Shown piece after piece: positions 1 to 34,900 of a DNA stretch of 64,000 nt (position 1 is the stretch's first letter; every line of letters starts with the position of its first letter). The DNA lies in the IMG/VR virus record IMGVR_UViG_3300025101_000019, positions 1 to 64,000 of that record; one strand, written 5' to 3'. A program made the translations under genes and the position numbers. The notes under the pieces were generated by a model. That model did no database searches, had not been told where the DNA came from, and saw only the letters and a list, made by a program, of their open reading frames with translations. The stretch comes from a virus.

Positions 1-2186
1 CCTTGAGCACCTTGAGAACCTTTTGGCCCTTGAGCACCTTGAGCACCCGTAGGACTTGCACCTTGAGCACCTTGGTCACCTTGAGGACCTTGTGCACCTT
101 GGTCACCCTTTGGACTCGACCCTTGTGCACCTGTGTCACCTTGAGGACCTTGTGCACCTTGTGCGCCAGTTGGACTGGCTCCTTGAGCACCTTGAGAACC
201 TTTTGGCCCTTGAGCACCTTGTGCACCAGTTGGACTTGCACCTTGAGCACCTTGTGAACCTTTTGGCCCTTGAGCCCCTGTATCACCTTTAGGACTAGCA
301 CCTTGAGCACCTTGGTCACCTTGAGGACCTTGTGCACCTTGAGCGCCAGTTGGACTTGCACCTTGAGCACCTTGAGAACCTTTTGGCCCTTGAGCACCTT
401 GTGCGCCAGTTGGACTGGCTCCTTGTGCACCTACATCACCTTTAGGACCTTGTGCACCTGTATCACCTTTAGGACTTGAACCTTGAGCACCTTGAGCACC
501 TACATCACCTTTAGGACCTTGAGCTCCCGTAGGACTAGCACCTTGAGCACCTTGAGAACCTTTTGGCCCTTGAGCACCTTGAGCACCCGTAGGACTGGCT
601 CCTTGTGCACCTGTATCACCTTTTGGCCCTTGTGCACCTGTATCACCTTTAGGACTTGAACCTTGAGCACCTTGAGCACCTTGGTCACCTTTAGGACCTT
701 GTGCTCCAGTTGGACTGGCTCCTTGAGCACCTTGTGAACCTTTTGGCCCTTGAGCACCTTGAGCACCTTGAGGACTTGCACCTTGTGCACCTGTACTTCC
801 TTTAGGACCTTGAGCACCTTGAGCGCCTGTATCACCTTTAGGACTTGCACCTTGAGCACCTTGGTTACCTTGAGGACCTTGTGCACCTTGAGCACCTGTT
901 GGACTGGCTCCTTGAGCTCCTTGAGAACCTTTTGGCCCTTGAGCACCTTGAGCACCCGTAGGACTTGCACCTTGAGCACCTTGTGAACCTTTTGGTCCTT
1001 GTGCACCTTGTGAACCTTTTGGACTAGCTCCTTGAGCACCTTGTGAACCTTTTGGCCCTTGAGCACCTGTATCACCTTTTGGACTTGCACCTTGAGCACC
1101 TTGAGAACCTTTTGGTCCTTGTGCACCTTGAGCGCCAGTTGGACTTGCACCTTGAGCACCTTGAGAACCTTTAGGCCCTTGAGCACCTTGGTCACCTTTA
1201 GGACTGGCTCCTTGAGCACCTTGAGAACCTTTTGGTCCTTGTGCACCTGTATCACCTTTTGGACTTGCACCTTGAGCACCTTGTGAACCTTTTGGCCCTT
1301 GAGCACCTTGAGCACCTGTTGGACTGGCTCCTTGAGCACCTTGAGAACCTTTCGGCCCTTGAGCACCTTGAGCGCCAGTTGGACTTGAACCTTGTGCACC
1401 TTGTGAACCTTTCGGCCCTTGAGCACCTGTACTTCCTTTTGGACTTGCACCTTGAGCACCTTGTGCACCTTGATTTCCTTGAGCACCTTGAGCACCTGTT
1501 GGACTGGCTCCTTGAGCACCTTGAGAACCTTTCGGCCCTTGAGCACCTTGAGCACCCGTAGGACTTGCACCTTGAGCACCTGTACTTCCTTTCGGCCCTT
1601 GAGCACCTGTATCACCTTTTGGACTTGCACCTTGAGCACCTGTACTTCCTTTTGGCCCTTGTGCACCTTGTGCACCTGTTGGACTGGCTCCTTGAGCACC
1701 TGTACTTCCTTTTGGCCCTTGAGCACCTGTAGCACCTTGTGGACTTGCACCTTGAGCACCCGTACTTCCCTTTGGCCCTTGTGCACCTGTATCACCTTTG
1801 GGACTAGCTCCTTGTGCACCTGTACTTCCTTTTGGCCCTTGAGCACCTTGAGCACCTTGTGGACTTGAACCTTGTGCACCCCCTGCTCCTTTTGGTCCTT
1901 TAGCACCTTGAGCACCTTGTGGACTTGAACCTTGTGCACCTTGTGAACCTTTTGGCCCTTGAGCACCCGTAGGACTTGCACCTTGAGCACCTGTACTTCC
2001 TTTTGGCCCTTGTGCACCTTGTGCGGATGAACCTGAAGTACCTTGAGCACCTTGAGAACCTTTTGGCCCTTGTGCACCTTGAGAACTTGCACCTTGAGCA
2101 CCCGTAGCACCTTTTGAACCTGATGAACCTCCTGAACCTGATGAACCTTTTTGTCCTTTTTGTCCTTTTGCACCTTGAGGACCTGT
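1..2186 (-). repeat. Coding tandem repeat of 51-60 nt: Gly-X-Y collagen with periodic 2-residue interruptions
   Basis: Consecutive 60-nt lines from about 841 to 1920 align with each other. The unit encodes about 6 GXY triplets plus an inserted pair (GAS-PT/PK/PQ-G). Confidence 0.95.
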
Positions 2187-2630
2187 ATTGTGTATTAGTA
2201 ACTCACCTACAAAGTAATTATGGTCTGGTTCTACCTCGATACTTATAAGTTCTATTGGTTTTTCAACTAATTTTACTGAAGTTATCTTTATTCCATTGAA
2301 AAATGGTGTAGTACCACATTTACAATCACCACAACCACATGATTCGTTACCGACTGGTGAAACCCATTCACCATCTTTGTATATTTTTATATCGACAGAA
2401 GTTTTTAGCTCAGTTCCGTCTGAAAGTTTAATTTGTAAGTAGGAGTCGAGAGTTCTTTCCCATTTGGTTACAACCTTATTGTACCTAATAACCCCATTTT
2501 CAACATCATAACCTTTTATATAGTCACCAAGTTCGATATTAGACAAATTGATTGGAACGCCTTGTCTATTATTTACTCGTCCTTTGATGTCTATTAAGGT
2601 ATCTTTATGTAATCCATGTATATGTTCCAT
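1..2630 (-). CDS. Hint-domain plus interrupted-collagen protein (fibre/whisker-like); runs off the window, no stop seen
   Basis: Translated by hand from ATG at 2630: [17 protein letters not shown]...[34 protein letters not shown]...[18 protein letters not shown]. The frame is open to the window edge (at least 876 codons). The track omits it because there is no stop in the window. Confidence 0.9.
2187..2630 (-). other. N-terminal Hint (intein-like) domain lacking the Cys1 nucleophile
   Basis: Block-A-like GLHKDTLI with Gly in place of Cys. Blocks F/G read [18 protein letters not shown] followed by Thr149. No block-B His. Confidence 0.8.
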
Positions 2631-2640
2631 ATTCTACCCT

Positions 2641-6076: not shown

Positions 6077-9000
6077 TTATGGTGCTGACGCTGAGTCAGG
6101 CATTAAATAATATCTTGAGTTATTTGTATTTTCACCTTCTGCAAAAATCATTCCCCATCTTGTATATCCTTCTACTGCATTTTCAGTATTGAAATAATAT
6201 ACACCCGTTCCAATTGTACCAGGTATTGATGCGTCTTTTGCATATACATAGTATTCGTTTGCAGTACCCGTACTATCCGGCGGTACTCCATCATACATAC
6301 TTACAGGTTTACCACCTTGATTCGATGCTGATGGGAATACTACTACTAATCTTTTTGAACCACCACTACTAAAGTTTATATATCCAAAACTTGATAGACC
6401 TGTTGCGTTACTATCTGATAGTGTTGTTTTTGAACTACTTCCAAATAATTGCATTGTACCACCAACATATGTTGGACTGAATGTTGTACCAAGTGAACCA
6501 CTTTGTAATTTTGCAATTACTGAACCTGCTTCGATTCCTACTCCATCACCACCACTATCACCCATAGATGCGATTGCCGCTGCTTCACTTGCCGCAGAAC
6601 CACCATCCCATCCATAAACATATGTCTTAGCTACGGGGTTAAGAATTGTTATACTTCTATTGTAACTTGTTGACTTATCAAAGTTGTCAAATACTGATGC
6701 GCTATAGTTGTAAGTCACACCATTACTAATTGTTCCTACACTTTGTAGTTGATATGATGATGAGTTTGCATTTTGTGGTACAAGTTTTAAATTACCTGCA
6801 TCTGTTCCACCTAATGAAGCTGAGAATGGTGTATCCGATTCTGTATCTGTTATAGTAATCGTTGTAAGATTTGTTGATGCCGCTACTGATGCGGTCATAT
6901 TTGCACCTACTTCATTAAATGTTGCAGTTGGTGCTTGATTTGCGACTACACTTACTGATATACTATCTGAACCTATATTATTAAATTGGTCTTGATATGT
7001 TATAGTTGATGTAATTGTATCACCACTACCTGTACTTGAACCACTTATATTTACACCTATTGTTAGTTTACCATTACTGTTTACTGCTATGGCTGCGTTA
7101 GATGAAGTAAATGCTTGTACTGCTGCGGAATTATATTGAGGTGAATAAGTAACTCCTAAGTCACCTTGTGTTCCCGTTCTACCATCAGCGTTAATTTTTA
7201 TATGTGCTCCACTCTCTGCACTCTCTATTATTCTAAATGTACCATTTGTAGTTAAAGTACCATTTGGTGCTGATGCGATTGTTACACTATGTTTAGTAGT
7301 ACCTACCCTAAATCCATGAGTATCTTTTATAGATGCGGTCATTGGATAAGTAGAACCACTTAAATTATTTTTTGGTTGTACTAAGTAAGTATCACCAGAT
7401 TTGTATGCATTTAATTGACCACTTGGGTCTGTAAAAGTAAATGAACCATGGTTTAGTGAATCACTTTCTGTATCTGTAAATGATATTGTTGTAATTGTAC
7501 TACCACTTCTTGCACCATTTGTATTTAAGTTTGCAGATGTGTTACTGAAACTTGGAACAGGTGCGTTATTGATAACAACTGCTATATTTTGGTTTACATA
7601 TTGTTTAGTTGTTTCAAATCCATGCTCTGATGCGGTTAATTCTACTGCAATTGTACTTCCACTTGAATATGCCGAACCACTTAGGTTACTTGCTAACCTT
7701 AAAGTAGTACTTGAACCTGTTGTTGCAGACAATCCAATTAAATTACCCGTTGATTTGATTTCCCATCGTTGAGATGCGCCTGATGACCATAATCCACTTG
7801 TTCCTGTTCTACCATTTGAACCTATTTTTATTTCATTACCACTTGTTGCGGATTCTATGATATATAAATTGTCCCAATTGTCAGATATTGAACTTGCCGC
7901 GTCATCTGCGATGTTAATTCTGATTAAACCTGTATCAGATGTTGTATTAAATGCGTCTTTTACTGTTACTTGGTAAAAATATCTATTTGCAACATCAGAA
8001 TTTAGATAAACTCCATTCTTTCTTGTTACAACACCTGCAGAACTACATTGGAATGGATTAGAATGTGGGTCATATAGTGAATTACCACCTAAAGATGAGG
8101 TAATATTTGAACCACCATCTAAATTTGCTTCTTTTAATGTAAAATTACTAAATACAATAGTATCACTCGTTGGGTCTGTTGCGGTTATCGTACCAACACT
8201 TGCACCATTACTACTATTTTCATTAATACTACCTAATGTTTGGTCATTTACTGTTGGACTGATGTTATCAACAACTTTTATTTGGAATGGTAAGTATGCA
8301 ATTGCTTCAGTATCATCACCACTTACATAGTGTTCATCACTTGCAGTTAAAACTAACTCATATTTTGGTGTAGTTTCATAATCTAATGATGATGTTGTCT
8401 GATTTAACTGAATATATGTACTTGCTTTAGTAATTGTAAATCCACTTGGGACTGAACCACTACCAATTGTGATTGTATCACTCTCATCATCGGTGAAATA
8501 AACTCTAACTTTGTTACTTGCCGCTACTGAGTTCTCATTTAGTGATTGTGTAAATGTAGTTACCACAGAACCACCGACTGATGTTTGTCTCCACTTCGGT
8601 GGAGTGTTAGGTGTTACCCTAATGTATATTGTTTTTGAACCAACACCTGCGAATGTATCTACTGCCTCTACTAAGAATGGATGTGAACCACTACCTGGTG
8701 TATTATCAGTATTCAATGATGCCGTTGATTTTGTATTTAGTGTTATAGCTCCATTTGATGCTATTCTAAATTTATCTGCCGTATAAGAACTTGCAGTTCT
8801 AAATGTAATCGATTGTCCTTCTGCGTCTGTTGCGCTAACAGTTCCAACAGAAGACCCACTTGCTACAAATTCACCAATTGTAAATCCAGTTGTACTAATT
8901 GATGGTACTGTATTTGGAAAGAATACCTTTTCAACAAAATCTGATAAAGAGGTAGTTGTTCCAAAGTTATTATTGTAAACACCTGATGGTAAGTCTGTAT

Positions 9001-10270
9001 TTGATACGACTCTATTTCCATCAAATGAAACAAAAGATGCGGTAGCTACCGACATTGAAGAAGTCTGATTATTAGATATAGCTGACCCTGTAAAAGTATT
9101 CAATGCACTAATGTCGGTTGAACCACCACCGCTACTACTACCTGTATTTGCGTTATCAATATAGATAACTCCACCCATATTTGCATGAGCAGTACATTGA
9201 TAATATAAAACTCTTGGTGAATCAAATTGTACATTCCAAGTTAATGTTCCATTTGAAACATTATTGTTTGTTATACCATCATTATACTCAGAACCTGCAG
9301 AACCATTAGGAGTTGATTGAATCCTAAATGGGTGAGCTCCCATATTATTTATAAATTTATACTTTTGACCTCTTGTTAAATAAAGAGTTGGGTCATTTTC
9401 TGCACCTATTAGACCTGGACCAGTAAATGTGTAATGATTAGAACCATCTGCACCTAATGTCCATTGTGAAGTATAGTTACTTAGTTCGGATACTGAAGAG
9501 GAATCAACACTTGTTATTGAAGATGATATCAATCCACTTGGTAATTGTACCGAAGATGATATTAACCCACTTGGTAATGATACCGAACTTGTATTGATTG
9601 TAACTGTAACTGCGTTACCATCATTGGTTGCCGTAACTGCGTTACCTACAAAATCAAAACTACGAACTATTTTACTTAATGCAGTTCCTTCATCGGATGC
9701 AGTTATATTTAATCCGGCTCCACCGCCACCACCACCTGAAAGTGATGATAAGTCTACTGAATTTCCACCTGAAATACTTAATGAGTTGTTTCCATCATTA
9801 AATGTTAATGTTTGTTCTGAACCTGTACTATCTGTGGTTGAGAATCCTAATGCCGTTATTTGTGCAGATGATGATATCGTTCCATCAGGAAGTGTATCAC
9901 CACCACTACCAAATCCTGCAGCTGCAGCACTTGCAGATGTTAAATACCCTGCACCTTCAACATTTGTTAATCTTGTTGCTAAAGATGATGAGGTAGTACC
10001 AAATGCTCCTGATATTTCTGCTTTTGTGTAATTATTTCTTGCTTCTAATGATGTGATTCTTGTAGAAATAGAACCTGATGTAATTGGGAATACTTTTTGC
10101 CTAAAGTTATTTGCTGCAGTTATCGAATTCTTTTGAAATGCAGTTATTGTTTGAGGTCTATTCTGTATAGAATTATATGTTACTTGCGCAGATGATGATA
10201 TTACACCATTAGATGATGTTATATCCCCAAAGAATGAACCGCTAAATGAACCTGAATAGTCGAATGGCAT
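6077..10270 (-). CDS. Large virion surface protein with cadherin-like repeats and a cupredoxin-like domain
   Basis: 1397 aa. Cadherin motifs VGTVSATDAEG, LDYETTPKYELVLTASD and VGTITATDP. The segment AHPF...YYQCTAHANMG resembles a type-1 copper ligand set. Confidence 0.75.
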   Translation of the reverse strand: MPFDYSGSFSGSFFGDITSSNGVISSSAQVTYNSIQNRPQTITAFQKNSITAANNFRQKVFPITSGSISTRITSLEARNNYTKAEISGAFGTTSSSLATRLTNVEGAGYLTSASAAAAGFGSGGDTLPDGTISSSAQITALGFSTTDSTGSEQTLTFNDGNNSLSISGGNSVDLSSLSGGGGGGAGLNITASDEGTALSKIVRSFDFVGNAVTATNDGNAVTVTINTSSVSLPSGLISSSVQLPSGLISSSITSVDSSSVSELSNYTSQWTLGADGSNHYTFTGPGLIGAENDPTLYLTRGQKYKFINNMGAHPFRIQSTPNGSAGSEYNDGITNNNVSNGTLTWNVQFDSPRVLYYQCTAHANMGGVIYIDNANTGSSSGGGSTDISALNTFTGSAISNNQTSSMSVATASFVSFDGNRVVSNTDLPSGVYNNNFGTTTSLSDFVEKVFFPNTVPSISTTGFTIGEFVASGSSVGTVSATDAEGQSITFRTASSYTADKFRIASNGAITLNTKSTASLNTDNTPGSGSHPFLVEAVDTFAGVGSKTIYIRVTPNTPPKWRQTSVGGSVVTTFTQSLNENSVAASNKVRVYFTDDESDTITIGSGSVPSGFTITKASTYIQLNQTTSSLDYETTPKYELVLTASDEHYVSGDDTEAIAYLPFQIKVVDNISPTVNDQTLGSINENSSNGASVGTITATDPTSDTIVFSNFTLKEANLDGGSNITSSLGGNSLYDPHSNPFQCSSAGVVTRKNGVYLNSDVANRYFYQVTVKDAFNTTSDTGLIRINIADDAASSISDNWDNLYIIESATSGNEIKIGSNGRTGTSGLWSSGASQRWEIKSTGNLIGLSATTGSSTTLRLASNLSGSAYSSGSTIAVELTASEHGFETTKQYVNQNIAVVINNAPVPSFSNTSANLNTNGARSGSTITTISFTDTESDSLNHGSFTFTDPSGQLNAYKSGDTYLVQPKNNLSGSTYPMTASIKDTHGFRVGTTKHSVTIASAPNGTLTTNGTFRIIESAESGAHIKINADGRTGTQGDLGVTYSPQYNSAAVQAFTSSNAAIAVNSNGKLTIGVNISGSSTGSGDTITSTITYQDQFNNIGSDSISVSVVANQAPTATFNEVGANMTASVAASTNLTTITITDTESDTPFSASLGGTDAGNLKLVPQNANSSSYQLQSVGTISNGVTYNYSASVFDNFDKSTSYNRSITILNPVAKTYVYGWDGGSAASEAAAIASMGDSGGDGVGIEAGSVIAKLQSGSLGTTFSPTYVGGTMQLFGSSSKTTLSDSNATGLSSFGYINFSSGGSKRLVVVFPSASNQGGKPVSMYDGVPPDSTGTANEYYVYAKDASIPGTIGTGVYYFNTENAVEGYTRWGMIFAEGENTNNSRYYLMPDSASAP

Positions 10271-11094: not shown

Positions 11095-12765
11095 TTATCC
11101 GCTTATTGCCTCTAAACCATGACAAAATACTTTACCATAGAACTCACCTCTTACCATTTGTTTAGCGTAACGAGTCATTACACCTTTTCTTGGTTGGAAG
11201 TTAGTTGGGTCATACACAAGAGGAGTCATAATTAATGGAATGTATGGAGCGTAAACTGCACCAGTTTCCAAGAATTGAGAACCTTTGAATCCTAATAGGA
11301 TTACATTCTCTTTCATGTATGGGTTTTTGTACACTTGGTATCTGTTAGCGAAAGAACCTACTTGGCTTACACCAAACGCAAATTGCATTTCGTTACCTGT
11401 ACCATTTGACTGATAACCTGGAATAGACTCGATGATAGTAGCAACATCAGGAGATACTACCATAAAGTTTGCTCCACCTCTCATTGTCTTAGCGTGGATT
11501 TGGTTAGAAACTCTCTGTAACTGAGTACCTAAAGTCTGGAACCATTGTTGTTGAGTATATCTCTCAACTGCTGCGTTAAGACCACTTGAAGTGAATTTAG
11601 TACCATCCCAAGAAAATCCGATTCTAGCAGACCACTTAGCTTCAGTTAAAGCGTTTTCTAATAACATATCTAAGATTTCTAAGTCAATCTCTTGTGAGAT
11701 GTACTCAGATAACATAGAAGTTAATTCTGCTTCAGCGTCAATTGAGTGATAAGCGTTTAAATCTTGTGCGAACTCAGGCGTCCATTGTGCTTTCAACTTT
11801 CTTGTCTTAGCTACGATTGGAACACTTCTAAGTTCAACATTCAATTCTGGAATACCTAAGTCTGAACCACCTGAAGTTGTGTCTTCAAAGTCACCTCTTG
11901 TAATGTCAGTTGGTTGCTTTTGGTATTTTACTTTAACACCAGCGATTGCGTTAGTAGCACCTACTAATTTAACCATGAATGATACTGAGTTAGACCCAGA
12001 AACATTTGCTTTAGTGTATGCAGGATAGTAAGCTGCGATGTTAGAACCACTAATTTCGAATGCTCTTACGCCTTCTAAATCAGCTCCAACTAATGCACTT
12101 GCGTCACCAGTAGTTACTGTTACTCTTCTTAACAATGCTCTATCAGCTGCTGATAAAGATTGTGAGAAACTTGAATCATAATCGATTGCTGGGTCTAAAG
12201 CGACACCATTTGCGAATGATTCAGATGTAAATGTAGTAGCTGCTGCGGCTGCTCCGGCTGCTGCTTGAGATAATGCTGCAGATTCAGTCTCGTTGATTGA
12301 ATATGCAAATCTTCCTGCTCCGTAAAGACCTTCACTTGCTTCGTTTGCAGTTTCAGTTACACCGAATACTGAGTCAGTTTGTGAATCTTTACCTGCACCA
12401 GTTTCAAATCCTGGTTGTGCAGTACCATACTTAAAGTCTAAGTAAAATACCAGACCTGATGGTAAGTTCATTGGTTGTACGCTAACGAATTCTTTTGCAG
12501 CGATTTCGCTGAAAATTCTTCTAACCAATGGAAGTGCTACACCTGCCCACTCTTCAGAGTTTGCGGATGTACCTGTTGAAGAAGCTTCTTTTACTAATTC
12601 TCTTGCTTGGTTTTCAAGTAGAGTAGCAATAGTACTTCTTTCAAAATCAGACTCGATACCTTCTAAAAGGCCAGTCTTGTCCCACTTAGTTACTAATCCT
12701 TTTGCCTCATCAGACATTTTCTTAGTATACCCAGCGGATTCGTTTAATAATGAATTTGTATCCAT
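11095..12765 (-). CDS. gp23: Major capsid protein (T4 gp23-like)
   Basis: VQPMNLPSGLVFYL, KTRKLKAQWTPEFAQDLNAYH, YAPYIPL and FQPRKGVMTRYA motifs. Confidence 0.97.
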   Translation of the reverse strand: MDTNSLLNESAGYTKKMSDEAKGLVTKWDKTGLLEGIESDFERSTIATLLENQARELVKEASSTGTSANSEEWAGVALPLVRRIFSEIAAKEFVSVQPMNLPSGLVFYLDFKYGTAQPGFETGAGKDSQTDSVFGVTETANEASEGLYGAGRFAYSINETESAALSQAAAGAAAAATTFTSESFANGVALDPAIDYDSSFSQSLSAADRALLRRVTVTTGDASALVGADLEGVRAFEISGSNIAAYYPAYTKANVSGSNSVSFMVKLVGATNAIAGVKVKYQKQPTDITRGDFEDTTSGGSDLGIPELNVELRSVPIVAKTRKLKAQWTPEFAQDLNAYHSIDAEAELTSMLSEYISQEIDLEILDMLLENALTEAKWSARIGFSWDGTKFTSSGLNAAVERYTQQQWFQTLGTQLQRVSNQIHAKTMRGGANFMVVSPDVATIIESIPGYQSNGTGNEMQFAFGVSQVGSFANRYQVYKNPYMKENVILLGFKGSQFLETGAVYAPYIPLIMTPLVYDPTNFQPRKGVMTRYAKQMVRGEFYGKVFCHGLEAISG

Positions 12766-12786
12766 TTTGATTTCTCCGTTTTTAAA

Positions 12787-13956
12787 TTATTTTATTAGTC
12801 CTGCTAACTTCTTAAATCTGTTAGCAACTTCGTTACCTTCAGAGATTATTGATTTGTTAGGTGCAGTACTTGCAGTTGGTTTAGAAGCGATTCCTTCTTT
12901 AACAACAGTTTTCTTTTTTCTTGCAACATTTAAGTTTTCACCTAATGTAGCAAAAACAAGCTTAACTTCTCTTAAGTTTGCAGCTCTATCAAAGTTCTCG
13001 ATAACTTTAACTTTTTGTGACTCATTCAAATCAAAAGTTCTGAATAATTTGTTGGTGTAAAGTAGTTTAGCGTTTAAAAGATTAACTTCGTTGATAGTTC
13101 CTTTTAAAGATTCGATAGTAGCGTATGCTTCTTCCAACTCTTTATTTTCTTCTTCAACTTCTTCAGTCTCTTCAACTTCTTCTTCTTCGTTTACAACAGA
13201 TTCTTCAACTTCGTCTTCGTTTTCATCTACTTCTTCTTCGTCCATTTCATTTGACATTTCTTTTAATGTCTCAATGATTTCGTCAATATTTAACTCGTCA
13301 TCGTTTTCCACTTCAGATGAATCACTAGCGTCATCAGATGGTTCAGCGTTATCGCCAGCACCTAAATCAGATGAGTCAAGTTCTTCTTTTACTTCTTCTT
13401 CCTCTTCAACTTCTTCTTCGTTGATAGAAGCTTCTAATTCTTTAATTACAGATTCTAAATCAAGTTCGTCTTCGTCCATTTCTGTTTCATCCATTTCTGT
13501 TTCGTCCATGTCCTTCATTTCGTCTGCAGGCGCTTCTTCTTCTGCTTCTTCAGCAGCTTCTTCTTCGTCATGCATTTCGTCTTCATGTCCATCAACAACA
13601 TCAGATGCGATGTCTTCGACTTCTTCTTTATCTTCTGTATCTAATTCCTCGTCAGCTACTTCCTCTTCAGATACTTCATCATCAGTCTCGTCCATATCTT
13701 TCATTTCGTCAGCTACTTCTTCACCTTCATAGGTTTCGTCAGCAACTTCCTCATCAGATTTCATTGCCATTTCGTCAGCAACTTCATCTTCTTCGATATC
13801 GTCTTCGTCTAATTCTTCAGCAATCTTGTGAGATAACATTGATTGAAGTTTTGGAGTGAAGGCTTCTTCTAAGGCCATCTTTGCGTTTGCTAATGCAGTT
13901 TCTTTTACTGCCTTTGCGTCAGCGATAGCTTCTTTTAATAAATCAGATTTAGCCAT
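12787..13956 (-). CDS. Prohead core scaffold protein (gp22-like)
   Basis: Extremely acidic coiled protein directly upstream of the capsid gene, with an AAGGAG SD. Confidence 0.8.
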   Translation of the reverse strand: MAKSDLLKEAIADAKAVKETALANAKMALEEAFTPKLQSMLSHKIAEELDEDDIEEDEVADEMAMKSDEEVADETYEGEEVADEMKDMDETDDEVSEEEVADEELDTEDKEEVEDIASDVVDGHEDEMHDEEEAAEEAEEEAPADEMKDMDETEMDETEMDEDELDLESVIKELEASINEEEVEEEEEVKEELDSSDLGAGDNAEPSDDASDSSEVENDDELNIDEIIETLKEMSNEMDEEEVDENEDEVEESVVNEEEEVEETEEVEEENKELEEAYATIESLKGTINEVNLLNAKLLYTNKLFRTFDLNESQKVKVIENFDRAANLREVKLVFATLGENLNVARKKKTVVKEGIASKPTASTAPNKSIISEGNEVANRFKKLAGLIK

Positions 13957-14034
13957 TTCTGTCTCTCCTTAATTAAATTTTGGATAATAAGATTATTTGG
14001 AATCTTAATAGTGATTACTATTATAAAAATAAGT

Positions 14035-14076
14035 GACCACTCATTGGGGAGTGGTATTGTGTTCGGTTTATAAATA
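14035..14076 (-). promoter_or_regulatory. Late promoter motif (14069-14076) followed by a 5' leader hairpin
   Basis: TATTTATA is followed by ACCACUC-CCCAAU-GAGUGGU. A second hairpin, UAAGAUU/AAUCUUA, lies at about 13988-14007. Confidence 0.55.
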
Positions 14077-14116
14077 TAGGTCTAAAACCAAAAACAGTAA
14101 GTGTTTACTATTTTAT

Positions 14117-14365
14117 TTAATCGTTTGACCTAATTCTTCTTATATATTCTTTTCTGATAGCATCCATCTTTTGTTTTCTTTTAACTGCGGATGGTTTTAT
14201 AAACTCTTTTCTATCCTTAAGTTCTTGTAAGACATTTGATTCTTTAACTTGTCGTTTCCAAAACTTAAGTGCGGCTTCAATATTTCCGTTGATTACTTTT
14301 GCGGCTTTGAATTTACCAGGGATAATCATTTGTTCCCTTCTTACTTTTTTGTATCTTTTTTGCAT
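14117..14365 (-). CDS. rpsU: Phage-encoded ribosomal protein bS21
   Basis: NIEAALKFWKRQVKESNVLQELKDRKEFIKPSAVKRKQK matches the bS21 pattern. ATG at 14365 is preferred over GTG at 14383, which lies in a hairpin. Confidence 0.88.
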   Translation of the reverse strand: MQKRYKKVRREQMIIPGKFKAAKVINGNIEAALKFWKRQVKESNVLQELKDRKEFIKPSAVKRKQKMDAIRKEYIRRIRSND

Positions 14366-14380
14366 ATATAAAAAATTAAA

Positions 14381-14412
14381 CACCGGCCATTAGTGACCGA
14401 TGTTAATAAATA
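14381..14412 (-). promoter_or_regulatory. Late promoter motif (14405-14412) followed by a hairpin and U-rich tract before rpsU
   Basis: TATTTATT, then CAUCGGUCA-CUAA-UGGCCGGUG, then UUUAAUUUUUU. Confidence 0.55.
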
Positions 14413-14437
14413 TAGAAATTATTTTAGTAAATATAAA

Positions 14438-15061
14438 TTATTTGAAATCTTTATCAGATGCTAACTTAGCACTATCTTTTTTGTAGAAGTCAATTAATGT
14501 TTTTAATCGTCTAGCATCAATAGTTACTGATTCATTATTTTCTTTATCTTTTATAAGAAGCGTTGGTCGGTATTCAAATTGACTAACTGCAGATTTTATT
14601 TTAGCACTTCTAAAATATTTAATTACTTCTACAATTCTTTCCTTTGTGAATGGAACACCTTCAAGATAAAATAAACCAACTTGAGGACTGTAATGTGATG
14701 AGTAATCTTCTACTACTACTGATTCTAATAGTTTATTTTTGAATTTCTTTGATAATGTAACTACTGCCTTTACAACATCCTTAATATTTTTTGCATCTAC
14801 TTGAGCGTATTGCTTTGAACCATCTTCAATACTAACATTGTATGGTTTGTCTTCATCTTCGTAATATCCAACGAATAATTGTGTTTCGCCACCATTACCT
14901 GCGTAGAATGTACTTGTGCCTGTATGGTATTCAACATCGTCTCCGTTAACTTGGACATCATTACCAATAGCTTTACTCATTGCCTTTGCGATGATTTTTT
15001 TCTCACCATCTTTTAATGCTGGGTCAGCTTTTTCACTTAATAAGTTTTTTAGTTTTATCAT
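14438..15061 (-). CDS. Putative internal head (cargo) protein
   Basis: N-terminus MIKLKNLLSE and an internal LLE-SVVVE linker. Confidence 0.6.
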   Translation of the reverse strand: MIKLKNLLSEKADPALKDGEKKIIAKAMSKAIGNDVQVNGDDVEYHTGTSTFYAGNGGETQLFVGYYEDEDKPYNVSIEDGSKQYAQVDAKNIKDVVKAVVTLSKKFKNKLLESVVVEDYSSHYSPQVGLFYLEGVPFTKERIVEVIKYFRSAKIKSAVSQFEYRPTLLIKDKENNESVTIDARRLKTLIDFYKKDSAKLASDKDFK

Positions 15062-31939: not shown

Positions 31940-34900
31940 TTATCCACAATACAAGTATCCATATACATTTTCCATTCTACCATTAGAATCCCATGAAGAG
32001 GATATCATACACTTAGCAACTGTATATGAGGTATGTGATTGTCTTTCTTCGTAAACTGGACTTGAACCACTAAATGAAGTTACCACCCACTCTGATGGTT
32101 GTTTCATTAGATAACCAGGCGTATCTGATGAACATAGTAAATCTCCTTTACTTACATCACCACCTTGGTTACACAATTTAAAACCAGGTAAAACAAATGA
32201 ACCTGATTCATCCTGCGTTACACTATCCCCAATCGAAGCCACTTTCCAAATTTCTTTAGAACCTGTTTGACTTACAGGAATATAATCGCCAAATGAATCT
32301 TTTCTTGATGCGGAGTAATATTCCTCAGGTGGGGTAAGTTCGTCTGAATCACTTGTTTTATTTTTTCCTAACGCAAATCCTTCAAATTTCTGAACATAGT
32401 TTAATTCAAGTTTTTCCCACAGAATTCCAACAACATTAGTGTCTTTTGCAGTTGTGACTTTATGAAGTTCATTATTTGCACCTAATTTAACCAAGTCACC
32501 AGAATTAATATCTGATGTTATATCTTTTTTGTATTGGTGTCCAAGTGTTGTTTCCTGACCGGAAAGTCCACTTGGTGCGGGTGATAATTTTGAAAGTGTG
32601 TTGTGTGAAAGTATCCCATTTGAAACATAGTTGTGAACTATATCCAATTCATAATTCCAAACCTCAACTTCTTCGTCAAAAGTTTCTACACTTTTTATTT
32701 TATCAATGAATATTTTTTCACCATCGACAACATATAACTCACCACCAACTCCAAGTTCATCTATTGCAATTTCAGAATTTGGATAATCAGGATGATATAG
32801 TAAATGTGAGTTAGAACATTTTAATTCTTTGTCTGATTCTGTTTTTATCAAACTCCACCCTTTAACTTTATTAGTAGTAATTTCATCAATAGGTGACCAT
32901 CCCCATTCTTTAGTTTCAAAGTTAAATACTTTTATTATATCATCGTTTTTGGTATCTTCTATATTTATCTCACCTCTTTTAGTAATTATTTTAGTACCAG
33001 GCAATACACAACTATAACTTCCACCCGATGAAATCGCAGATGAAATAGAAGTCAATTCAGTATCAATATCATCTTCAAGGTCTGTAAATCTTGTAGCAGC
33101 ATTTCTAACAGTTCCATCACTATCTCTAAATCTTGGTACTTTTAGAATTAAACCAGTTGAGTCTACACCAAACATGGTATTAAATGCTTTTGTTGTACTA
33201 CCAGACTTGAAAGTTGCGGTATCTTCAAGAATTCCTTTAAATGTTGCAGTACCATCTTGTGCAATTTTAAATTGAGGTGCTGAAATATATCCTGAAGAAC
33301 CTAATGTAAAATCACCATAAGTATCATTTGAGGTTGCAGTTCCTTTTATTCCAATATGCGATGAACCAATTGTCCACCCACCAATAGAACCAGCTCCTGC
33401 GGTTACTGTACCATCAATGGATAATGTAGTTCCATCAAATTCAAGTTTTGGTGAACTTGTACCACCCATTTTAAATGTTCCTTTATCAAGACTTATTATA
33501 GAACCTTGGGTAGTACTTAAATTGTTAGACCTAATTGTTCCTGTCTTAATTGAATCACCACTAATTGTAGTAGAACCACCACCACCTGCGAACTCGGTAA
33601 CTTTTATATAATCTATATATGTCTTACCTGCTGCGCCATTATAGTTTACAAGAATCATTGGTGCAAATGCGTTTGTTGTAGTCCAAACTTGACCTGGGTC
33701 ATGAATGTTTGGGTGAACGCCACCAGTCTGGTAATATCCTGCAGTACCCTTAAAGTAACCTTTGTATATTACCCATTCACCAATCGCTGGTTGTGCACCA
33801 CTTGCAGCAAAGTAGTGTTGACTACCATAATTACCCCCCGTACCAGTAGTATTACCTGCAGCATTAATTGCGGTAAGTTTCGTACTACCATCTGTATGTA
33901 ATGAAGATGAGAAGGCGGTTATACCTGCGTAAAGGTAATTATAAGCACCTGCAGCTCTCTGTACTCTAACTTCTATTTCATATAATGAGTTTGGATTAAA
34001 TGGCATAACAGTATTTGAACTAAGCCAGGCCATGTCGTCAGTACCAGAATTATTACCAATTATAGCGACTGGCCCAAAGAATTGTCCGTAGTCTGTATCT
34101 GTAATTGAATCGTTTGCGGTGATAGCTCCACCAACAATGGCCATTCCTACACCTGAACCATCTAATTTTGGATTTTTTCCTTGGTCTATATATGAGGGTC
34201 TTGCTTCTCGTGTTGCTGCGTTAAAGTCTTCAAAGTATAATGCTTCTGGTTGATTTCTACCTACAAGTTCAACATCACCACTAATTTTAATATTACCATT
34301 AGAACCACTAATAGATGTTAGTCCTCTACCAAAATAAAATTCTTGTACTGCGAAGTCAACACCTGAACCTGATATCAATAATGTTTTAGACCCATTGTCC
34401 CATGCGAAGTAACCTGCTCCTAATGCACCCGAACCACTACCTAAATAGAAGTTACCATCATTATCCATAAACGCACTCATGTCGTTTATTGTAGCTGCGG
34501 AAGTTAATGCATTATGGTATCCAAGAACTTCACTATTCATTACCAACCCAGCTGGCGCAGGGAATGGAATTGCGGATAATGTATCACCTAAGAAACTAAA
34601 GTCTTGATTGTCTGCACCTTGAGCTCCTGTAGCTCCTTTTGCACCATTCGTACCATTCGAACCTGCCGAACCTTTTCCACCTTTAGCACCTTTTCCACCT
34701 TGAGCACCTTGACCACCTTGAGCACCTTTTCCACCTTGAGCACCTGCCGAACCTTGTTTAGATTTAGAGAACGACATGGTTTTTGCAATTATTACTTTCT
34801 GTGAACCACTACCACTAATTGCATTAATTTCTAATGAACCAGAATCTTGTGTTAGGCCTGTTATAGTAAAGTGATTATGTCCGTTTGTTGTTGCATTACC

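Follow-up and report, generated by a model that had tools for sequence, protein, structure and literature searches.

A Hint-fold leader domain at the start of a collagen-like phage fibre protein and its probable removal by asparagine cyclisation

The Hint-collagen gene and its product

The first 64,000 nucleotides of IMG/VR virus record IMGVR_UViG_3300025101_000019 (referred to here as the window) were examined, and an open reading frame (ORF) on the minus strand was found to encode a leader with the features of a Hint (Hedgehog/intein) domain, followed directly by collagen-like repeats. This Hint-collagen ORF is carried by a contig of 173,350 bases (34% G+C) from an uncultured phage, and window position 1 is contig base 1. 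The ORF begins with an ATG at position 2630, has an in-frame stop two codons upstream, and is open as far as window base 3, at the contig end. As the window begins at contig base 1, the gene is cut by the end of the contig. A ten-base spacer, AGGGTAGAAT (coordinates 2631..2640, minus strand), read directly from the sequence and including a Shine-Dalgarno-like GGG, separates the ATG from the stop codon of a gene for a 276 amino acid (aa) fibre protein, and the two genes are in different frames.

The predicted Hint domain comprises residues 1-148, from Met1 to Asn148 (coordinates 2187..2630, minus strand; 16.7 kDa), and was delimited using the translation, matches to the PT-HINT family and the gp41-1 intein, and a structural model. 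An initial annotation, made from the sequence alone, had placed a Hint domain with almost no N-extein at the start of this ORF and was correct in position, as only the five residues MEHIH (coordinates 2616..2630, minus strand) precede position 1 of the domain. The limits of this flank are set by the upstream stop and the family alignment; Ile4 and His5 within it are invariant in the family, and His5 is encoded by both CAT and CAC. Thr149 (coordinates 2184-2186) follows the domain directly, and the Gly-X-Y repeats start at Gly150 with no spacer residues between them and the Asn148/Thr149 junction (the slash marks the predicted scissile bond).

Evidence for a Hint fold

In a profile search, PT-HINT (PF07591) matched the leader with an E value of 3e-4 and 21.4 bits, under the Pfam gathering cut-off of 27.7. 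A sequence search matched the leader to the gp41-1 intein at E 4.5e-4, and the Pho RadA intein, Tetrahymena BIL2 and the C. thermocellum BIL were matched at E values of about 0.03-0.04. An exhaustive phmmer search of 1.84 billion representative sequences returned 141 matches. Those outside the close family of the leader were canonical BIL/PT-HINT and intein sequences, down to E 1.7e-17, carrying a CF..GT start, a T..HP block B and an HNY...VHN end.

A model of the leader obtained with AlphaFold2 (AF2) from an alignment of 27 sequences had a mean pLDDT of 80.6 and a pTM of 0.76, and the predicted structure has the horseshoe-like all-beta fold of the HINT superfamily. Comparison using Foldseek matched this model to solved BIL and intein structures with probability 1.00 and TM values of 0.64-0.80, including Tetrahymena BIL2 (6y75; E 9e-10), the gp41-1 intein, the C. 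thermocellum BIL (2lwy), Npu DnaE and many other inteins. The model also matched 103 predicted viral Hint proteins at E<=1e-3. By sequence and predicted structure, residues 1-148 are assigned as a Hint domain, the nearest relatives of which are type-A BIL and PT-HINT domains. The fold, whose absence would have counted against the initial annotation, was found by sequence searches, in the AF2 model and by Foldseek.

Catalytic residues lost and retained

Alignment with BIL relatives placed Gly6 (coordinates 2613..2615, minus strand) at the position of the Cys1 nucleophile of inteins and BIL domains, directly before the residue that follows Cys1, with Ala or Ser there in some relatives, and aligned Thr11 with the block-A Thr. 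The 148-residue leader contains His only at positions 3, 5, 8, 137 and 147. As residues 9-136 include no His, the block-B His is absent under any alignment. The alignment pairs the Thr of B:7 with the invariant Ser78 and the His of B:10 with Ile81, rather than with Asp80 as the initial annotation had implied. The C-terminal side is entire, with the block-F His137, the penultimate His147, Asn148 and a +1 Thr, and position F:4 is occupied by Ser130. The replacement of Cys1 by Gly, the lack of a block-B His, and the presence of the block-F His and of a terminal His-Asn/Thr just before the first Gly-X-Y had all been noted in the initial annotation and were borne out.

Several defining features of the established families are absent from the leader. 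Among the features of type-A BIL and PT-HINT domains, the leader has the C-terminal His-Asn together with the block-F His; it does not reach the Pfam threshold, has no Cys (or Ser) at position 1 and no block-B Thr-x-x-His, and is not embedded within a larger protein. It departs from class 1 inteins in having Gly at position 1 and an 'N-extein' consisting only of MEHIH, and shares with them the +1 Thr. The WCT motif of class 3 inteins is also absent, as F:4 is Ser130, G:5 is Ile, Val, Leu, Met or Phe, and block B is without Trp. A class 3 reading with Ser130 as the nucleophile was rejected for want of a WCT motif and a block-B His.

Relatives and conservation

A scan of IMG/VR identified 22 loci, on contigs of up to about 180 kb, that together with metagenome fragments provided 17 distinct domain sequences; the relatives are uncultured phages of roughly 170-180 kb. 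Overall identity within the leader family is 43-82%, with a mean column identity of 63%. In every relative the domain starts 3-6 residues from the initiator Met, leaving no N-extein, and HN/TGP runs straight into the Gly-X-Y repeats. The family begins with the pattern M-x-(L/M)-I-H-[G/A] followed by L-[HY]-[KE]-[DE]-[TA]-L, and two fragments have Ser at position 1. A survey of homologues for loss of Cys1, as the initial annotation had proposed, gave G, A or rarely S at position 1 throughout. The leader ends in [FY][VI]G..[LIVMF]HN/TGP.G, and beyond it lie about 800-1,200 residues of collagen-like repeat and then a conserved C-terminal module of ~40 residues. All homologues have the Hint domain, and no intein-free allele was found among them.

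The family alignment contains 38 invariant positions, among them I4, H5, S78, S130 to Y139, H147, N148, T149, G150 and P151. All ten residues of the block from Ser130 to Tyr139 (coordinates 2214..2243, minus strand), which holds both Ser130 (F:4) and His137, are invariant, and their codons vary synonymously: His137 is encoded by CAT (6) or CAC (8) and Ser130 by AGT (13) or TCC (1). The same was seen at the predicted scissile junction His147-Asn148/Thr149 (coordinates 2184..2192, minus strand), which is invariant in all relatives and uses two, two and four codons, respectively (CAC 10 and CAT 4 for His147; AAT 5 and AAC 9 for Asn148). Synonymous variation at these invariant residues indicates that the constraint is on the amino acids and not on the DNA.

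The collagen region and a second collagen gene

The collagen-like region (727 residues; coordinates 3..2183, minus strand), truncated by the contig end, was matched by PF01391 at E 2e-56, and its long Gly-X-Y runs predict a triple helix. Gly residues are three apart in 181 of 220 Gly-Gly spacings, and the repeats are broken by 35 regular two-residue interruptions (G[AS]SPxG), and 31 of the 36 Gly-X-Y runs comprise exactly six triplets. The Y position is occupied by Lys 35 times and never by Pro, which fits lysine-directed and not proline-directed modification. An ORF of 557 aa that can be read through the repeats in a second frame (window 500-2173, minus strand) is a composition artefact and not a gene, and similar Gly-free shadow ORFs are present in relatives.

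In complete relatives the collagen genes come as a tandem pair, with the second about 20 bases downstream of the first (L005-L021). The product of the second gene starts with a domain of 155-215 residues that ends in an invariant [YF][IV]VHN (for example, L018; coordinates 8849-9550). The +1 residue varies (Pro, Ala, Val or Phe), as does the linker behind it, which spans 20-100 residues and in most relatives is rich in Cys; the collagen repeats and the C-terminal module come next. The two leaders are about 20% identical, and profile-profile comparison related them with a probability of 76% (E 2e-5, 129 columns). An AF2 model of the second leader (pLDDT 87) matched BIL and intein structures, though a bias toward the Hint fold is possible, as the input alignment contained first-gene leaders and canonical Hint sequences. 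The block-F His is not present in the second leader, which has DVY where the first has DHNY. From the model and the profile comparison, the second leader is likely to be a more degenerate Hint-fold domain.

The C-terminal modules of the two collagen paralogues are homologous (~40 residues; G..F....L.F..G......MY.SGS) and are found at coordinates 8692-8826 and 11819-11953 of L018 and 14905-15039 of L024, the far end of the window's contig. No match to this module was found in Pfam. The module may act as a tip domain or bring the chains into register, and is likelier than the Hint leader to be the registration element. The initial annotation had assigned trimerisation and folding to the Hint domain as a prodomain, a role for which nothing spoke in the analysis and for which the shared C-terminal module is the better candidate.

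At its far end, the window's contig carries a collagen C-terminus that matches the second gene and not the first. The assembly has therefore broken inside the repeats, and the end of the first gene and the start of the second are missing from the contig. A single gene wrapping round the contig was considered and rejected, because complete relatives have two tandem genes and the far-end piece fits the second. The contig both starts (window 1) and ends (base 173350) within same-strand collagen repeats, and in many related contigs an end likewise falls within these genes. The collagen repeats break assemblies, and the ends of these 'linear' contigs are not genome termini.

Genomic context

The second collagen gene is directly followed by an oxygenase and glycosyltransferase group (L024; coordinates 11157-14863), consisting of genes for a PF13640 2OG-Fe(II) oxygenase, a GT2 glycosyltransferase, and a GT4/GT1 glycosyltransferase fused to an OGFOD2-like oxygenase. 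In gene content, this group resembles a collagen-modification cassette. Beyond it are neck-like genes, a gp15-like gene and the gene for the tail sheath. Upstream of the Hint-collagen gene, the order is conserved in most loci and consists of a gene for a 1,397-aa fibre protein, genes of 220, 440, 61, 56 and 276 aa, and then the Hint-collagen gene.

A complete Hint domain is encoded elsewhere in the same genome, inside a 3,161-aa fibre protein (window 32480-33091, minus strand), and retains Cys1, an SNSH block B, VHNY and SHN/T. This domain serves as an internal control, indicating that the losses described above are specific to the collagen-leader gene. The collagen leader shares only weak similarity with it, confined to the C-terminal block (E 1e-4, 35 residues), and a derivation of the leader from the Hint domain of the 3,161-aa fibre was rejected on these grounds.

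The 1,397-aa protein (window 6077-10270, minus strand) is rich in Ser and Thr, contains a cadherin-like domain and matches the baseplate-wedge connector family phrog_677 at its N-terminus; it looks like a fibre or baseplate protein. Part of its gene is 75% identical in DNA sequence to a gene of Flavobacterium phage immuto annotated as 'major capsid protein'. As the 1,397-aa protein shares no similarity with a T4-like capsid protein, a capsid role was rejected and the annotation in immuto is probably wrong.

The cultured phages nearest to the phage studied here are Microcystis phage Mel-JY01, the sheath protein of which is 54% identical, and the Flavobacterium 'immuto' phages. When the collection of cultured phages was searched with the leader of either collagen gene, no match was found other than weak ones to unrelated Hint domains in structural proteins of jumbo phages.

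Predicted self-removal of the leader

Hedgehog Hint domains are not cleaved at their C-terminal end and are missing the terminal His-Asn, and in some inteins block-B residues assist C-terminal cleavage. In a review, catalysis of Asn cyclisation is assigned to His F:13, His G:6 and Asn G:7, and Asp F:4 in one intein is described as holding Asn G:7 back until the branched intermediate forms (PMC4031507). According to the same source, type-A BIL domains cleave, with cleavage products dominating, and join their flanks by attack of an amine on a thioester, whereas type-B BIL domains are not cut at the C-terminal end and have no terminal His-Asn (PMC4031507).

With this background, the sequence and model of the leader suggest that it probably cuts itself from the fibre, in one direction only, by Asn cyclisation. 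The front half of the splicing machinery has been dismantled, as there is no N-extein, position 1 is Gly (or Ala or Ser) and there is no block-B His. A (thio)ester cannot form at the front of the leader, and splicing cannot occur. Asn148, helped by His147 and His137, would attack its own backbone carbonyl and thereby break the Asn148-Thr149 bond. The predicted products are a Hint leader with a succinimide end, with a computed mass of 16.68 kDa, and a collagen-like chain with Thr149 as its first residue, just ahead of the first triplet at Gly150. An invariant Ser occupies F:4 in place of the usual Asp, which fits cleavage that is constitutive and uncoupled from earlier steps. Such a leader may serve to shield the N-terminal end of the chain or keep it soluble, or its removal may give the chain a defined N-terminus set flush with the helix.

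The initial annotation had described the domain as a domesticated intein that cleaves at its C-terminal end. The chemical part of this description agrees with the loss of the front chemistry and with an intact and conserved C-terminal apparatus. The term 'domesticated intein' is looser than the evidence, because the nearest relatives are BIL and PT-HINT autoprocessing domains of fibre and toxin proteins and not mobile inteins.

Several observations weigh against self-removal. The gene is in none of the cultured phages of the collection searched, the block-B residues that help C-terminal cleavage in some inteins are missing from the leader, and the lack of the block-F His in the second leader means that the chemistry may differ between the two genes. 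A permanent structural role would also be in line with the high conservation of the whole domain, which includes surface-like positions and the invariant Ile4-His5 flank, and once cut the chain would be left with no evident N-terminal domain by which to attach to the virion.

These last points favour the principal alternative, which is that the Hint domain is retained as a catalytically dead structural head, fastening the fibre by its N-terminal end to a partner protein or the virion itself, with His-Asn-Thr kept for folding or binding. The loss of the block-F His in the leader of the paralogue, its variable +1 residue, which can be Pro, and the PT-HINT score under the family cut-off also point in this direction. 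However, the Hint relatives that are not cut at the C-terminal end, namely the type-B BIL and Hedgehog domains, lack His-Asn, yet it has survived in both collagen paralogues although their leaders are only ~20% identical. In addition, selection at the codon level falls on exactly the catalytic residues, and the domain adjoins the triple helix without a linker, so placed that three globular copies could hardly fit on the helix tip. Retention is therefore considered rather unlikely, and cleavage is preferred to it on account of the amino acid-level selection on the catalytic residues, the survival of His-Asn, the absence of a linker and the replacement of the Asp F:4 'brake' by Ser. As the second leader also ends in His-Asn, leader removal looks like a common maturation step of both fibres, beside the products of the hydroxylase and glycosyltransferase genes.

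Simple cleavage leaves the invariance of His5, Ser130 and Thr149 not fully explained, and this gives a small chance that the freed amine of Thr149 takes part in a BIL-type ligation. In that case, the alpha-amine would attack a (thio)ester made elsewhere and join the collagen covalently to another chain; the donors proposed are the complete, Cys1-bearing Hint domain of the 3,161-aa fibre, encoded in the same genome, or a class 3-like ester on Ser130. The same amine-on-thioester attack is used by type-A BIL domains to join their flanks (PMC4031507), but nothing indicates that the collagen protein and the 3,161-aa fibre meet. For the second donor, none of the class 3 requirements (Cys F:4, the Trp and Thr of WCT, and the block-B His) are present. 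Splicing in cis would be pointless with an N-extein of five residues. Ligation of either kind is accordingly improbable, and its most elaborate form, in which Asn cyclisation timed by the folding of the fibre is followed by joining of the Thr149 amine to the (thio)ester of the 3,161-aa fibre Hint to give a branched or end-to-end linked virion fibre, is more improbable still. An analogy with the isopeptide attachment of BclA in B. anthracis after N-terminal processing was dropped, as the mBio 2011 paper describing it (PMC3104494) has been retracted.

The initial annotation had also pointed to a Cys-rich insert, which is indeed present at residues 97-106 (coordinates 2313..2342, minus strand) with four Cys within ten residues, and had suggested that it gates cleavage through metal binding or redox state. 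Inteins under zinc or redox control are known, and the insert has a weak metallothionein-like match (E 1e-3, under the cut-off). However, it lies in a variable loop that is the lowest-confidence stretch inside the domain model (means of 73 and 62 for 10-residue blocks), and the number and spacing of Cys vary where it occurs. It is confined to the subclade of the window. Most members of the family lack it, among them L011-L023, P0005 and P0006, and it cannot be a family-wide switch. Gating by the insert is very doubtful and would, at the most, be peculiar to a single subclade.

Comparison with known systems

Among the 141 representative phmmer matches, the combination of Hint and collagen was found only in the leader family, and every public copy of the leader is an unnamed or 'hypothetical' metagenome protein. 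A literature search for Hint or intein domains together with collagen in phages returned nothing relevant, and no paper or named protein with this architecture. As far as this search shows, a Hint leader on a collagen-like phage fibre, as predicted from these sequences, has not been described previously.

The closest known systems, the type-A BIL (C. thermocellum BIL, 2lwy; Tetrahymena BUBL BIL2, 6y75) and PT-HINT (PF07591) domains, share with the leader the fold, the terminal His-Asn and the block-F HN[YF], and are of the autoprocessing rather than the mobile type. They are internal, start with Cys, have a block-B TxxH and usually carry Lys at +1, whereas the leader is translated first, has Gly, Ala or Ser at position 1, no block-B His, Ser at F:4 and an invariant Thr at +1, and scores under the PF07591 cut-off. 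Canonical inteins of classes 1, 2 and 3 (gp41-1, Npu DnaE, Mja KlbA and mycobacteriophage Bethlehem DnaB) likewise resemble the leader in the Hint fold, the block-F His, the His-Asn and a hydroxyl at +1. The leader differs from them in having no N-extein, no Cys, Ser or Thr at position 1 in most members, no block-B His, no WCT motif and no intein-free allele.

A functional parallel is provided by engineered C-cleaving intein tags (Ssp DnaB mini-intein, pTWIN1), which free a target protein with its native N-terminus by Asn cyclisation alone. These tags, like the leader, are Hint domains without a working N-terminal nucleophile placed before another protein. They are, however, laboratory constructs made from true inteins, in which block B is kept and cleavage depends on pH or temperature, whereas the leader is natural, fixed in a phage lineage and carried by a collagen fibre. 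A second parallel is with the S74 autopeptidase chaperones of phage fibres and spikes, each a self-removing end domain of a long, low-complexity, presumably trimeric fibre (PMC7824862), as is predicted here for the leader. The S74 domains differ in being C-terminal, in using a Ser-Lys dyad, in having an unrelated fold and in being known promoters of trimer folding.

Significance

The invariant Ser at F:4 together with the loss of block B makes the leader a natural test case for Asn cyclisation uncoupled from earlier steps. If cleavage does occur, a small, Cys-free and constitutively C-cleaving Hint domain could also serve as a tool. It would then be a natural, lineage-fixed Hint domain reduced to a one-way N-terminal leader, nature's counterpart of the intein release tags, and would represent a second kind of self-removing domain in phage fibre assembly beside the C-terminal S74 chaperones. 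Self-removal of the leader would complete a procollagen-like maturation pathway in a bacteriophage, with propeptide removal alongside the hydroxylase and glycosyltransferase genes.

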